Assembly (NCBI GenBank): GCA_037445735.1
Contig: JBBIJY010000009.1
Span: forward strand, 35,241-99,240
Direction of reading: 5' to 3'
DNA: 64,000 bases
Origin: Armatimonadota bacterium
Lineage (GTDB): Bacteria > Armatimonadota > Fimbriimonadia > Fimbriimonadales > GBS-DC
Shown: piece by piece, positions 35,013 to 64,000 of the stretch
Layout: every line of letters begins with the position of its first letter
Position numbering within the stretch: the first letter of the stretch is position 1
Notes under the pieces: model-generated
Seen by the model: the letters and a program-made list of their open reading frames with translations, nothing else
What the model was told of the DNA's origin: nothing
Database searches by the model: none
Translations under genes and position numbers: made by a program

Positions 35013-36817
35013 AACAGCGGGGCACAGCGGTCGTGTATACAGCGGGCGAGGCGCGCCAGCGTCAGCAGGAGTCGCAGCGCCTCGCGGTCGCGGGCGGGCT
35101 GATGGCGCTGGGCGGCGTGCTGATTGTCGGGCGGCTCTTCACCCTGCAGGTGCTGCAGGCGCAGGAGATGCGTGAGGCAGCCCGCATCCGTCGTGAGCGC
35201 ACGCGCCCACTGCTCGCCCGACGCGGCGCGATCCTTGACCGCTATGGACGATCCCTCGCCCGCACCACTTTCCATTATCACCTGGCGATCGACCCGCGGA
35301 GCGTGCGCGATCCTGCCGCGACCGCTCGCTGGCTTGCGCACGGGCTGCAACTCGACGCGAACCGCCTGCAGGCTGCCATCGAAGGGGCACAGGCGAGCAA
35401 TGCCCGCTACCTGCGCATCGCCACCTTCGTGCCGCAGGCGCGTGCCGAACCGCTCCTGCAAGCCTATCGGCGCACACCCACCCGCGAGCGGCTCGCCATT
35501 CTCACGAGAGAGGTTGTGCCCTCGCGTGAGCTGCCCGAAGGGCGGCTCGCTGCGCAGGTCGTGGGGCTGACCACCCTCGAAGAGAACCGTGAACAGGGCA
35601 ATATGCTCAAGCCCCTTTGTGGGCTGGAGCTTTCGATGGACGCGCGACTGAACGGCAAAAACGGTCAGGAAGAGGGTGAGGTCGCGCCGAACGGCGCCAT
35701 CATTCCCGAAACTCTGCGCCGGCGGGTGCCGCCCGTCGATGGCGAACCCGTGCGACTCACGCTCGATATCGAAATTCAACAGGCTGTGGAGGATGCGCTG
35801 GACGACCTGATGCGCCGACATCAGCCTGCAGGCGCGCTGGCGATGGTGCTGAATGTGCGCACGGGCGAACTCCTCGCGCTCGCCAACCGCCCCACCTTTG
35901 ACCCCATCACGCGCAAAGGGCTGGAGCGTAGCGCCGAACCGCTGCGCAACCGCGCCATCACCTTCCTGTACGAGCCTGGCTCCACGCTCAAGCCAGTCGT
36001 GCTGGCTGCCGCGCTCGACGCGGGCATCGTGCGCCCAACAGACCGATTCTACTGCCGCAACCGTTTTGTGGTCAGTGGCAAACGCATCAATTGCGTGGTG
36101 CATGGGCGCTCGCACGGCTTGCAAACCGTTGAGGCGGTGCTGAAGAACTCCTGCAATGTTGCCTGTGCGCAGATTGGCTTGCGAATGGGGCTGGAGCGGT
36201 TGTACAGGGGGCTACAGCGGTTCCACCTGCTGGAGCCGACGGGCATCGAGCTGCCTTCGGAGTGGACGGGCTGGACGGAGCCACCCCAGCGCGTGCGATA
36301 TGGGCGTACCCTGCGCGAGGCGAACCTCGCCTTCGGGCAGGGCGTGTTCGTGACGCCCCTCGCGCTTGCCGCCGCCTACGCCGCGCTCGCCAACGACGGA
36401 CGCTGGATCCAGCCACACCTGCTCTACGGACGCACCGACCTGAAAACCACACAGGTGGTTCAGCCCGCAATCGCGCGGCTCATCCTGCACGCGCTGGTGC
36501 AGGCAGTGGAGGAGGGCACGGGCAGGCAGGCACAGATACCCGGCTACTGGATCGCGGGCAAAACGGGCACAGCGCAGAAAGCTATCCCCGAACGCGGCTA
36601 TGTGCGCGGCAAATATATCGCCTCCTTTATCGGCATCGTGCCCGCCGATGAGCCGCGCGCCGTCATCATGGTGCTTGCAGATGAACCGCGCAACGGCTAC
36701 TACGGTGGCGAGGTCGCAGCGCCCACCTTCCGCCGAATCGCCCAGTTCCTGCTCTGGTACTGGAAAATCCCGCCCAGCAGAGAACTTAAAAGCAGAGCGA
36801 GGTCTAACCGGGTATGA
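35009..36817 (+). CDS. ftsI: Class B penicillin-binding protein (FtsI)
   Basis: RGAILDR, EPGSTLK, SCN, KTGTAQ. Confidence 0.9.
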   Translation: MKQRGTAVVYTAGEARQRQQESQRLAVAGGLMALGGVLIVGRLFTLQVLQAQEMREAARIRRERTRPLLARRGAILDRYGRSLARTTFHYHLAIDPRSVRDPAATARWLAHGLQLDANRLQAAIEGAQASNARYLRIATFVPQARAEPLLQAYRRTPTRERLAILTREVVPSRELPEGRLAAQVVGLTTLEENREQGNMLKPLCGLELSMDARLNGKNGQEEGEVAPNGAIIPETLRRRVPPVDGEPVRLTLDIEIQQAVEDALDDLMRRHQPAGALAMVLNVRTGELLALANRPTFDPITRKGLERSAEPLRNRAITFLYEPGSTLKPVVLAAALDAGIVRPTDRFYCRNRFVVSGKRINCVVHGRSHGLQTVEAVLKNSCNVACAQIGLRMGLERLYRGLQRFHLLEPTGIELPSEWTGWTEPPQRVRYGRTLREANLAFGQGVFVTPLALAAAYAALANDGRWIQPHLLYGRTDLKTTQVVQPAIARLILHALVQAVEEGTGRQAQIPGYWIAGKTGTAQKAIPERGYVRGKYIASFIGIVPADEPRAVIMVLADEPRNGYYGGEVAAPTFRRIAQFLLWYWKIPPSRELKSRARSNRV

Positions 36818-61532: not shown

Positions 61533-61612
61533 CGTCGCCTCGCTATATATTATGGCACATTCGACACCCCGAATGGAGCAATCCCCTGCCCTTCAGGTAT
61601 AATCTTGTTGCT

Positions 61613-62545
61613 ATGGAGACGCTGGACAGAAGCCTGCAAAGCGAAGCCGTCAGTCGCTATGAGGTTCAGAAAGCCACCTGGCGCGTGAAGGTCGGTCTGG
61701 CGGAGATGTTGCGCGGTGGCGTGATTATGGATGTCACCGACGCCGAGCAGGCGCAGATTGCCGAGGAGGCGGGCGCCGTCGCCGTGATGGCGCTGGAGCG
61801 CGTGCCCGCCGACATCCGACGCGAGGGCGGCGTCGCTCGCATGGCGGACCCGCTCAAGATTCTGGAAATCAAGCAGGCTGTTACCATCCCCGTGATGGCG
61901 AAGTGTCGAATCGGGCACTTCGCCGAGGCGATGATTCTGGAAGCGCTCGGCGTCGACTTCATCGACGAGAGCGAGGTGCTGACCCCCGCTGATGAGGAGC
62001 ATCACATCAACAAGCACGCCTTTCGCGTGCCGTTTGTGTGCGGGGCGCGGGAGCTGGGCGAGGCGCTGCGCCGAATCGGGGAAGGCGCCGCCATGATCCG
62101 CACCAAAGGCGAGGCGGGCACAGGCAATATCGTGGAAGCCGTGCGCCACATGCGCGCGATTATGCGCGACATCCGTCGCATCAAAAGCGCACCCGAAGAC
62201 GAGCTGATGAGCATCGCCAAACAGCTGCAGGCGCCTTACGACCTCGTGGTGGAGATTCACCAGACGGGTCGCCTGCCCGTGCCGAACTTCTCGGCGGGCG
62301 GCATCGCGACGCCTGCCGACGCCGCGCTGATGATGTGGCTCGGCGCGGAGGCGGTGTTCGTCGGGTCGGGCATCTTCAAATCGTCTAACCCGCGCGCTCG
62401 CGCCCGCGCCATCGTGGACGCCGTGACCTACTATCGCGAGCCAGAGATCCTCGCGGAGGTCTCCAAAGGGCTGGGCGAGGCGATGCCCGGCATCGATGTA
62501 CGCCGCCTGGCTGAAGAAGAGCTGCTTGCCGTGCGCGGCTGGTAG
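61613..62545 (+). CDS. pdxS: Pyridoxal 5'-phosphate synthase lyase subunit
   Basis: [31 protein letters not shown]. Confidence 0.98.
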
Positions 62546-62633
62546 CTACAGGAGCGTGAAGGCTATGCCTGCTATCCGAGCGAAGAAGATGAGCGCGGCG
62601 GACTTTCAGGTCCGTTGGCGCATTTAGACGGAC

Positions 62634-62787
62634 CCCTTGACTTCGCTGTCATCGATGGGGTATAGTACAAGCGCCATCGGGGCAAAGCTGTGCGTGCACC
62701 TTGACAATCGGGCGAAGGGTCCGATTGGAGTTCAGAGCTGTGCCTCTGAGCGGGTGGGCGTTCGCGCCTGCCCGCTGCAGGGGGTTG
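62634..62787 (+). promoter_or_regulatory. Promoter + putative CRISPR leader
   Basis: TTGACT (62637) -18 nt- TATAGT (62661); hairpins; abuts the first repeat; homologous copy upstream of xerD. Confidence 0.7.
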
Positions 62788-62872
62788 GTTTGTAGCCTAC
62801 CTCTGAGGGATTGAAAGAATCGTTTGTAGCCTATTCGAGAAAGTTTGTAGCCTACCTCTGAGGGATTGAAAC
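62788..62872 (+). CRISPR. Orphan CRISPR mini-array (2 repeats, one aberrant 25-nt spacer)
   Basis: GTTTGTAGCCTACCTCTGAGGGATTGAAA(G/C) at 62788-62817 and 62843-62872; 30 bp, ATTGAAAC end typical of type I-B/III repeats. Confidence 0.78.
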
Positions 62873-63435
62873 TCGGCGTACTGGCGTTGCAGGGCGATTT
62901 CGAGAAACACGCGGCGATGCTGGAGCGCATCGGCGTCGACTGGCGCGAGGTGCGCAAGGTCGCCGATCTCCACTCCGTCGACGCGCTGATTATCCCCGGC
63001 GGCGAAAGCACCACCATCGGGCGGCTGATGGCACGCTATGGACTCGATACCGCCATCCGCGAGCGGGCACAACAGGGCATGCCCATCTACGGCACCTGCG
63101 CTGGCATGATCCTGCTGGCAAAAGAGATTGCCGGCAGCCAGCAGGAACGGCTGGGGCTGATGGATATTGAGGTTATCCGCAACGCCTTCGGCAGCCAGAT
63201 CGAAAGCTTCGAAGCCGACCTGCCCTTCAAACCACTGGGCGACCGCCCTGTGCGAGCGGTTTTCATCCGTGCGCCTGTCGTGAGCCGCGCGGGCGCCCGT
63301 GTGGAGGTGTTGAGCGAGTTTGACGGCAAAATCGTGGCGGTTCAGCAGGGCAAGCTGCTGGCGACGGCGTTCCACCCGGAGCTGACCGACGACGAGCGCG
63401 TTCACCGCTACTTTTTAAGCCTGCTGACCCGATAA
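62866..63435 (+). CDS. pdxT: PLP synthase glutaminase subunit
   Basis: GVLALQG, PGGESTT, GTCAG, FHPEL; TTG start inside repeat 2. Confidence 0.96.
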   Translation: MKLGVLALQGDFEKHAAMLERIGVDWREVRKVADLHSVDALIIPGGESTTIGRLMARYGLDTAIRERAQQGMPIYGTCAGMILLAKEIAGSQQERLGLMDIEVIRNAFGSQIESFEADLPFKPLGDRPVRAVFIRAPVVSRAGARVEVLSEFDGKIVAVQQGKLLATAFHPELTDDERVHRYFLSLLTR

Positions 63436-63438
63436 AAA

Positions 63439-63516
63439 TGGTCGGGGCGCCCGGATTCGAACCGGGGACCTCCTGCACCCAAAGCAGGCGCGCTAACCAT
63501 GCTGCGCTACGCCCCG
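63439..63516 (-). tRNA. tRNA-Pro (TGG)
   Basis: CGGGGCG acceptor stem, CCTGC-TTTGGGT-GCAGG arm, GTTCGAATC, CCA. Confidence 0.95.
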
Positions 63517-63534
63517 ACGCTCCTGATTATACCT

Positions 63535-63945
63535 TAGCTGGCTCCGGGCGAGTGTGAGCGTGGTTTGCGCTGCATCGAGCGGCTGATGCGACACATAGCC
63601 CTTCTCGTGCAGGGATTGGACACGCTCATAGTTGCGCTGGGCTTCCTGCAGGCGGGCTTCGGCGTCGCGCACGGCGTTCGCCACCTCGATGCGCTCCTGC
63701 GGGTGCTTCACCGGCTCCAGCATGCGAAGGTTCTCCTGTGCGCTCTGATAGGCGGCTTCGGCGGCACGGAGGGCAGCCTATGTGAGCGCGGACTGCGCTT
63801 TCGGCTCGCGCTCCATCGGCTCCACGCGCAGCTGCGCCTGACGCACGGCGAGGCGAGCCTCTTTCGCCTGCATCTAGAGTGCAAGTTGCGCCTGTGCGGT
63901 GCTGAGTCGCGCCGATTCGACCGGCGCACGGCCCTGCTCCACCTG
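63535..63945 (-). pseudogene. Degenerate HlyD/efflux adaptor-like coiled-coil fragment
   Basis: One frame reads ...AQENL...EAQRNYERVQSLHEKGYVS..LDAAQ with in-frame TAGs at 63874-63876 and 63778-63780. Confidence 0.6.
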
Positions 63946-64000
63946 TCACCAATCCAACCACAACACCTCGTATCCACACAACCCGATTGCCGTCGATCAC

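Follow-up and report, generated by a model that had tools for sequence, protein, structure and literature searches.

Between the genes pdxS and pdxT of an Armatimonadota bacterium, we found a CRISPR leader and two repeats, the second of which abuts native pdxT sequence and seems to carry the start codon of this gene. The genome (GCA_037445735.1, G000 hereafter) is a metagenome-derived draft of 59 contigs with a size of 2.78 Mb and a completeness of 99.2%. The closest PdxT with a name attached, at 80%, comes from a Fimbriimonadales metagenome-assembled genome and likewise points to the Armatimonadota. The stretch analyzed, termed the window below, comprises the 64,000 nucleotides (nt) from position 35241 to 99240 of contig JBBIJY010000009.1 (C9), and its end coincides with the end of the contig. 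We regard the leader-repeat unit at pdxT as the probable scar of an event in which a type I-B CRISPR system targeted its own chromosome, and which by chance rebuilt the start of pdxT.

The gap between pdxS and pdxT is 320 nt long and houses a first repeat (R1), a stretch of 25 nt and a second repeat (R2; Table 1). The initial annotation had described two 30-bp repeats here, and both were confirmed; a scan with the repeat pattern gave two matches in the window and none in 100 shuffled versions. R1 and R2 are identical in 29 of 30 nt, and R2 and R1 differ from the consensus of the 17 copies in the genome by zero and one mismatch, respectively. In the search with the Rfam model CRISPR-DR2, R2 scored 43.3 bits and R1 36.5 bits, the latter slightly below the gathering score of 37. 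The leader and first repeat of an array at the end of contig C45 agree with the window from 62632 through R1 in 185 of 186 nt, the sole difference being the last base of R1. Thus, R1 is directly preceded by 156 nt of a leader bearing a promoter, and the TTGACT-18-TATAGT element proposed previously was recovered by a promoter scan at 62637-62666 (10 of 12 consensus matches; two sites in 2.2 kb versus 0.6 expected). The description as a leader plus mini-array holds for the repeats and the leader but needs two corrections: the leader is the proximal part of a longer, multi-copy one, and the 25 nt between the repeats is a composite and no ordinary spacer. Its last 9 nt, TTCGAGAAA, are the same as those at 62899-62907 in pdxT, namely nt 27-35 past R2, and most of the remainder is a repeat fragment. 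A regular spacer of 35-37 nt, the length of 135 of the 156 spacers of three relatives (G001-G003), is missing. By its repeats, which match those of bona fide arrays in G000, by its leader and by the cas genes of the genome, the pdxT unit is an orphan type I-B mini-array, albeit one lacking a regular spacer.

The 17 genomic copies of the repeat were counted at up to three mismatches, and 15 of them have no more than one. Contigs C20 and C41 carry arrays with 36-nt spacers that run off the contig ends, and one array ends in a degenerate terminal repeat. The longer version of the leader was found at the ends of C12, C19, C25 and C36 as well as at both ends of C45, and C9, too, terminates within it. 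A complete type I-B operon is located on contig C2 (49276-57195) in the order cas6-cas8b?-cas7-cas5-cas3-cas4-cas1-cas2, in which the cas8b position is held by an unnamed open reading frame of 487 amino acids and cas1 matches the type I-B Cas1b model with 450 bits. The genes for Cas1 and Cas6 have their sole matches in the genome on C2 and none in the window, in agreement with the earlier remark that the window is devoid of cas genes; cas6 and cas1-cas2 are thus present in the genome, on a contig other than that of the mini-array. No CRISPR array was found beside the operon in the region from approximately 7 kb before to approximately 6 kb after it. On C41, which has arrays at both ends, no cas genes were detected, and the contig contains housekeeping genes (PolA and others) and a SAVED-domain protein. 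The gene for the latter (346 amino acids; C41:14123-15163, minus strand; Pfam E 2.2e-8) adjoins the trailer end of an array. We additionally observed that one long leader is common to all arrays, that it breaks the assembly at at least six contig ends, and that all arrays are remote from the cas operon.

The comparison with related genomes reveals what the locus looked like before. The pdxS-pdxT spacing is merely 3-5 nt in four genomes (L023, L030-L032), while five genomes (G002, G001, G012, G017 and G009) possess a gene of approximately 580-600 nt between pdxS and pdxT, and others retain decayed remnants of it. G002 is the nearest relative, with 97% identity in PdxT and 91-97% identity in the flanks, and its intervening gene belongs to the Uma2 family (Pfam E 2.5e-36), giving the order pdxS-Uma2-pdxT. 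The homology of the window to G002 lasts until approximately 62605 (62602 against the allele of the sequencing run X2 described below) and returns from 62873, the first base past R2, to 63535. The start of pdxT reads ATGACCA|TCGGTGTACTGG in G002 versus ...ATTGAAAC|TCGGCGTACTGG at the end of the repeat in the window. In total, approximately 550 nt gave way to 267 nt of filler, leader and mini-array, the loss comprising Uma2 and the initial 7 nt of pdxT, and the last 7 nt of R2, TTGAAAC, stand in for ATGACCA with the frame kept. No CRISPR repeat was found in the 10.5 kb of G002 around pdxS-pdxT.

The reading frame of pdxT contains an in-frame TAG at 62848-62850, followed by CCT ACC TCT GAG GGA, none of which is a start, and then by the TTG at 62866-62868. 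The TAG and the five non-start codons leave only the TTG in R2 or positions downstream of it as the start of pdxT, never a position 5' of the repeat. In all 30 relatives, PdxT begins with M-x-x-G-V-L at the aligned position, and the TTG is the only start that preserves the conserved first strand GVLALQG; the protein begins with M-K-L-GVLALQG here versus M-T-I-GVLALQG before. The exclusion of upstream starts by the TAG, as put forward in the initial annotation, was confirmed, and its placement of the start within the end of R2 agrees with the homologs. The Pfam profile SNO is matched over its full length (residues 5-185 on profile positions 1-184 of 188, E 6.1e-65), with GTCAG (residue 76) and FHPE (residue 169), which we take to be the nucleophile Cys motif and the His/Glu motif of the SNO glutaminase. 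G000 has a single strong match for pdxT, and no PdxJ was found in this 99.2%-complete genome. Over codons 4-189, 14 synonymous and 5 non-synonymous changes set pdxT apart from that of G002, with a ratio of non-synonymous to synonymous substitution rates of 0.11; these counts indicate purifying selection across the joint history with G002, in which the period since the graft is not singled out. Altogether, the TTG in R2 is likely to be the functional start of pdxT.

The junction at pdxT is not unique in G000. At the end of C45, the array reads repeat - 32 nt - repeat - 21 nt - repeat, the sequence is again homologous to G002 from the first base past the last repeat on, and a gene of 1362 nt in G002 is missing. 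Also on C45 (4385-4480; L050), a two-repeat mini-array stands in place of 528 nt, among them the 5' part of anmK; positions 135-364 of 367 in the AnmK profile are left, and approximately 134 first codons are lost. The spacer at this site copies a piece of anmK that was deleted (20 of its first 20 nt match anmK of G002; 95%). Solo repeats occur at C18:15616, where 817 nt of native DNA are missing, and at C21:33388, where a diverged leader accompanies the repeat and 784 nt are missing. At all five sites compared with G002, native DNA starts at the first base past the 3' end of the repeat, within 1 nt, and the missing DNA (550, 1362, 528, 817 and 784 nt) is on the 5' side in every case. A sixth site, C13:16042-16071 (L016), comprises a 45-nt promoter-leader (TTGACT..TATAGT) and one repeat, 12 nt 5' of a gene for a 475-amino-acid MlaD-domain protein. 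The site is common to G002 (end of its contig C8; L061), in which the promoter stretch is identical and the repeat is decayed or rearranged; it is a synteny break relative to G001 and G003, and the junction of repeat and native DNA was seen against G001. It is possible that this promoter-leader represents a long-lived promoter capture. In G002, the place of anmK shows a repeat end in decayed form, GAGGATTGAAAC, and then 30 nt, implying that a CRISPR remnant was already there in the common ancestor. The junction counts leave out three trailer ends of the genome's own arrays on C20 and C41.

We read the three nucleotides directly 5' of the junction point in genomes without the graft. The flank is CCA (G002) or CCG (G001 and G003) for pdxT, CCT for the C45-end array, CCC for the anmK junction, CCA for C18, and CCG, CCC and CCG for C21. 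For C13 it is CCA in G001, and G003 likewise gives CCA once the extrapolated alignment is shifted by 2 nt. The copy in G002 of the spacer at the anmK site is flanked by CCT. The reciprocal test covered 17 array loci of the relatives, of which two had a short flank, seven had no homolog, six aligned only at least 13 nt from the repeat and two were informative; one of the latter, G002:C27, gave CCG when read from G000. Altogether, CCN was found in eight of the nine testable cases against a CC background of 0.079 in G000 (binomial P ~1e-8). In Pyrococcus furiosus, 5'-CCN-3' directly upstream of the protospacer is the protospacer adjacent motif (PAM) for both adaptation and interference, and self-spacers cluster around arrays (PMC5737086). 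On the basis of the flanks, we infer that CCN is the PAM of the type I-B system of G000. We propose the term self-protospacer graft for a category that corresponds to no known family; at pdxT, it is represented by the junction at 62873, the CCA or CCG flank and the loss of approximately 550 nt.

The spacers of type I systems adjoin the 3' end of the upstream repeat with their PAM-proximal end. The junctions of repeat and native DNA consequently share the layout of repeat and spacer. Cas3 of type I-E and I-B systems produces deletions in one direction, upstream of the PAM, often with the protospacer intact (PMC6897959, PMC11096372), which matches the side of the DNA loss at the sites in G000. 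Directly before the last repeat, there are partial copies of the native 36 nt, taken from the 3' part of the protospacer, 9 nt at pdxT and 17 nt at the C45 end. Judged from these copies and the anmK-derived spacer, self-spacers existed in this genome.

We propose the following course of events. The ancestor would have had pdxS-Uma2-pdxT with pdxT starting as ATGACCA|TCGG, and the 36 nt past CCA would have been captured as a spacer through the CCN PAM, upon which the cell targeted its own chromosome. Cas3 damage would run upstream of the PAM, and the lesion may have been mended when the chromosomal protospacer recombined with, or was copied from, the spacer copy in the array. The array spacer of approximately 36 bp would be the only homology on hand for the repair, with invasion there followed by copying toward the leader or by a crossover. 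Such a repair would place a repeat directly before the protospacer, earlier spacers and the leader might follow, Uma2 and the initial 7 nt of pdxT would be lost, and the PAM would be removed, ending the autoimmunity. As new spacers sit beside the leader, this course would explain why the grafts have one to three repeats and often a leader. The TTG of the repeat, falling in frame where the ATG had been, would have made the rearrangement survivable. The partial protospacer copies may have arisen by template switching between repeats in repair synthesis, which is a speculation. More broadly, there is an about even chance, in our judgment, that the type I-B arrays of this lineage spread by being copied onto their own self-targets, with the repeat, often together with the leader, replacing the PAM.

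Several observations weigh against the self-targeting scenario. No intact pdxT-derived spacer was found in G000 besides the 9-nt remnant, and a simple crossover leaves the partial protospacer copies before the last repeat unexplained. Nor does the scenario account for the left junctions, which are untidy, with a leader cut off at 62632 and a 26-nt filler at pdxT that had no other match of at least 16 nt in the genome or in the loci of the relatives compared, and with the duplicated gene fragment further downstream. The leader copies are 100% identical, while the HlyD-like fragment near the contig end has diverged by 3.7% (15 mismatches, 96.3% identity to the C23 copy); the events would thus differ in age, or the leaders have been homogenised. 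One of the nine testable junctions, G002:C28, lacks CCN, as the flank read from G000 is GTG with the first 7 nt unaligned and the junction there is inexact. The searches for an independent PAM gave nothing usable: three spacers of G000 had no exact match in viral contigs, one spacer of G000 matched only its own array at up to three mismatches in 151 genomes of the order, and the 156 spacers of G001-G003 yielded one near match in G000 (5' flank ATT) and tRNA-like partial matches. The 44-nt junction of R2 and pdxT had no match in metagenome contigs of JGI, and the grafted allele is known from one metagenome-assembled genome (MAG) and one run, which may be the source of that MAG. As to the start codon, a Shine-Dalgarno-like GAGGG ends 1 nt from the UUG, which is a poor spacing, and it is the reading frame and homology that point to the use of the TTG. 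Separately from these points, the near match mentioned above is the spacer of a three-repeat mini-array of G001 (contig C53; L079) at C3:48680-48714, with two mismatches in the 35 nt aligned and three differences in 36 nt, and this spacer may be another self-derived one in the genus.

The base-exact junctions and the CCN rule could also be accounted for without a prior self-spacer, if Cas4-Cas1-Cas2 trimmed a chromosomal end at a CCN PAM and joined it by a half-site reaction to the spacer side of the leader-proximal repeat like a giant spacer, which would fuse the chromosome arm to leader and repeat. The genes cas1, cas2 and cas4 are intact. However, the self-derived spacer at anmK and the partial protospacer copies are not predicted by such a joining, and it requires either an array already upstream in cis or a translocation. 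No precedent for the joining of a chromosomal end to a repeat by the integrase was found in the literature searched, and we know of none. We regard this route as unlikely.

With regard to expression, the leader promoter is directed into pdxT with no gene in between, and it probably contributes to the transcription of pdxT. The transcripts would stem from both read-through from pdxS and the leader promoter approximately 190 nt upstream. A terminator scan from pdxS to pdxT gave one weak match (62767-62781), which is present in every leader copy, and none that is convincing. The RNA fold of the 5' untranslated region (5'UTR) is unremarkable (z = -1.37), and the minimum-energy structure leaves the start region without pairing. 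The 5'UTR would resemble a miniature precursor CRISPR RNA. Cas6b enzymes leave a canonical 8-nt 5' handle (PMC5965381); in R2, the predicted cut would accordingly fall between 62864 and 62865, with 1 nt left ahead of the UUG. Cleavage of the pdxT 5'UTR RNA by Cas6 is somewhat more probable than its absence; the predicted cut would remove the Shine-Dalgarno-like GAGGG and is expected to dampen translation at most. We additionally noted that a TATAAT box ends 10 nt 5' of the ATG of pdxS (61598-61615 in the window), so that the mRNA of pdxS may be leaderless or nearly so. Leaderless translation, if common in this organism, bears on the translatability of a Cas6-cut pdxT RNA.

The initial annotation had gone further and supposed that a leader-repeat was co-opted as the promoter and 5'UTR of pdxT. 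By position this is plausible, as the promoter faces pdxT and the MlaD site offers a parallel, but as to origin a scar fits better than an evolved regulator. In the latter case, the mini-array would have been retained to put pdxT under the leader promoter and the control of Cas6/Cascade, coupling PLP (pyridoxal phosphate) synthesis to CRISPR activity. The 10/12 promoter, the presence of cas6, the two repeats that stay unmutated despite a junk spacer (R1 apart from its last base), and the promoter-leader with a repeat kept before the MlaD gene in two species would all suit such a role, which is also compatible with an origin as a scar. On the other hand, no biological link of vitamin B6 synthesis to CRISPR is evident, the unit is absent from G002, and the repeat at the MlaD site is decayed in G002. 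The pseudo-spacer lacks a PAM-flanked target: its 12-nt seed has four other genomic matches at up to one mismatch, none preceded by CCN. Elsewhere, like grafts truncate genes (profile positions 1-134 of AnmK lost) or delete whole ones, implying that the process is not tuned to regulation. The mini-array at pdxT is better read as a tolerated scar, and we consider evolved regulation improbable.

An accident independent of CRISPR, in which illegitimate recombination dropped a fragment of an array before pdxT and both junction and frame arose by chance, could draw on the TGA common to both sequences at -6 to -4 of the junction (aTGAcca versus tTGAaac), readable as microhomology. It is very improbable, as six junctions in G000 lie exactly at the repeat 3' end, CCN occurs at eight of nine testable sites against the background of 0.079, and the deletion is always on the PAM side. 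A transposon-like mobile leader-repeat element was considered separately and ruled out, since every site is a replacement with a loss of 0.5-1.4 kb and no simple insertion was seen.

The mini-array at pdxT is real DNA. Run X1 is a public subsurface metagenome, possibly the source sample of the MAG itself, and was independently assembled with k=31. One contig of X1 (record 5; depth 18) spans 62843-63507 and contains the full repeat, pdxT and the tRNA gene, and another (record 4; depth 15) spans 62787-62871, namely R1, the 25 nt and R2. The depth of single-copy flanks in X1 is 18-22, and no wild-type upstream region of pdxT was found in this run. Run X2 carries the other allele on a 6.6-kb contig, on which 62003-62602 and 62873-63535 are separated by 553 other letters. 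As a separate matter, a contig of X1 over the shared leader (depth 51) has GC where the window has CT at 62688-62689, which suggests small variation between leader copies or strains. A chimeric contig or a binning error joined via CRISPR repeats in the metagenome is hardly credible: although the genome is a metagenome draft, a contig end lies 1.1 kb from the site, the leader breaks the assembly and the two k=31 pieces of X1 cannot be linked to each other without the k=55 contig that joins them, the contig-end overlaps in the G000 assembly (k=55) are 55 nt, longer than the 30-nt repeats, which alone are thus unable to fuse unrelated DNA; X1 has the repeat directly before pdxT at single-copy depth; and the order of C9 and C45 in the assembly agrees with the synteny with G002.

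The features of the locus are listed in Table 1.

Table 1. Features in and around the pdxS-pdxT gap (positions in the window).
Feature	Position	Strand	Remarks
pdxS, PLP synthase subunit	61613..62545	+	stop TAG 62543-62545; Pfam SOR_SNZ E 2.3e-108
Remnant of Uma2-family gene, first ~13 codons, MPAIRAKKMSAAD	62565..62605	+	from comparison with the intact gene of G002, G001, G012, G017 and G009
Filler, 26 nt, between Uma2 remnant and leader	62606..62631	no strand	
CRISPR leader, proximal 156 nt	62632..62787	+	-35 TTGACT 62637-62642, -10 TATAGT 62661-62666
Repeat R1, ends AAAG	62788..62817	+	
Composite pseudo-spacer, 25 nt	62818..62842	+	AATC + repeat nt 1-12 + TTCGAGAAA
Repeat R2, canonical, ends ATTGAAAC (AAAC)	62843..62872	+	contains putative pdxT start TTG 62866-62868
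pdxT, glutaminase subunit, 189 amino acids	62866..63435	+	Pfam SNO E 6.1e-65
Inferred former protospacer, first 36 nt of native DNA past R2	62873..62908	+	
tRNA-Pro (TGG)	63439..63516	-	
Internal fragment of putative HlyD-like coiled-coil gene, 410 nt, contains stops	63536..63945	-	duplicate of intact C23:33465-33874
Second, longer leader copy, start only	63946..64000	+	runs on into contig C45 (reverse complement), three-repeat array

To our reading, two aspects appear to be new, namely a CRISPR repeat encoding the start codon of a conserved housekeeping gene, and the repeated joining of leader-repeat units, at PAM-marked sites, to targets in the cell's own chromosome. In the literature searched, the coverage of which was incomplete and excluded supplements, no account was found of such units being attached to self-protospacers of the chromosome. 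If the self-targeting scenario is true, it would represent an undescribed escape from autoimmunity and a birth of orphan and mini-arrays, along with new promoters, truncated genes and a repeat-encoded start of pdxT, and the mRNA of a housekeeping gene would begin as a substrate of Cas6. It would thereby give a testable answer on the origin of isolated and mini CRISPR arrays and on how the acquisition of a self-targeting spacer can be survived. Core metabolism would then have been altered in structure and regulation by CRISPR autoimmunity, through the loss of a gene, the replacement of a promoter and a start codon encoded by a repeat. The signature, a repeat 3' end abutting native DNA with a PAM at that point in sister genomes, is searchable in other genomes. 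It also calls for caution in annotation, as a CRISPR repeat may overlap a true coding start and the masking of arrays can truncate genes.

Among known phenomena, genome remodelling by self-targeting resembles the sites in G000 in that 0.5-1.4 kb are lost on the PAM side, the protospacer is kept and the escape goes through PAM loss (Vercoe 2013 PMC3630108; PMC6990116; PMC6897959; PMC11096372; for the type I-B system of Haloferax, PMC7521656). According to the text available from the review (PMC6990116), cells escape when the target, the spacer or the cas genes are mutated or deleted, or through anti-CRISPRs; the copying of a repeat plus leader to a place before the protospacer is not described there. 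Recombination between spacer and target has been reported in phages, where it moves CRISPR loci (Varble 2019, cited in PMC8616872). It is alike in using the spacer-target identity of approximately 36 bp as the substrate and in placing CRISPR beside the target, but it concerns phage genomes and transduction, whereas the case here concerns the cell's own chromosome and stable grafts.

Off-target integration is said to duplicate local native sequence as the repeat. The resulting neo-CRISPR arrays (Nivala 2018, described in 10.1101/148544) are likewise small new arrays made by the CRISPR machinery at non-CRISPR sites of the chromosome, but the pdxT unit differs in having canonical repeats and a leader and in the deletion of native DNA. 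This origin was ruled out for pdxT, as the repeats are canonical and the site in G002 has no repeat-like sequence. CreA of CreTA and crlRNAs (PMC8501985, 10.1101/2023.03.03.530964) share with the pdxT unit two repeats around a short non-standard spacer and a proposed role in gene control. Theirs, however, are in cas loci, with degenerate repeats and a spacer that partly matches a PAM-flanked promoter, while the pdxT unit has perfect repeats and is remote from cas. A regulator of this type was ruled out, as the seed has no CCN-flanked target and the locus is on C9 versus cas on C2.

CRISPR arrays and mini-arrays that stand alone, at a distance from cas genes, have reportedly been found before. 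The pdxT unit is akin to orphan arrays (Shmakov 2020, cited in PMC8616872) in comprising a leader and few canonical repeats far from cas, with the cognate system elsewhere in the genome. It differs from them in lying inside a housekeeping operon, with the last repeat fused base-exactly to a gene as its apparent start codon, and in having an origin that can be traced, via sister genomes, to a PAM-flanked site in its own chromosome.

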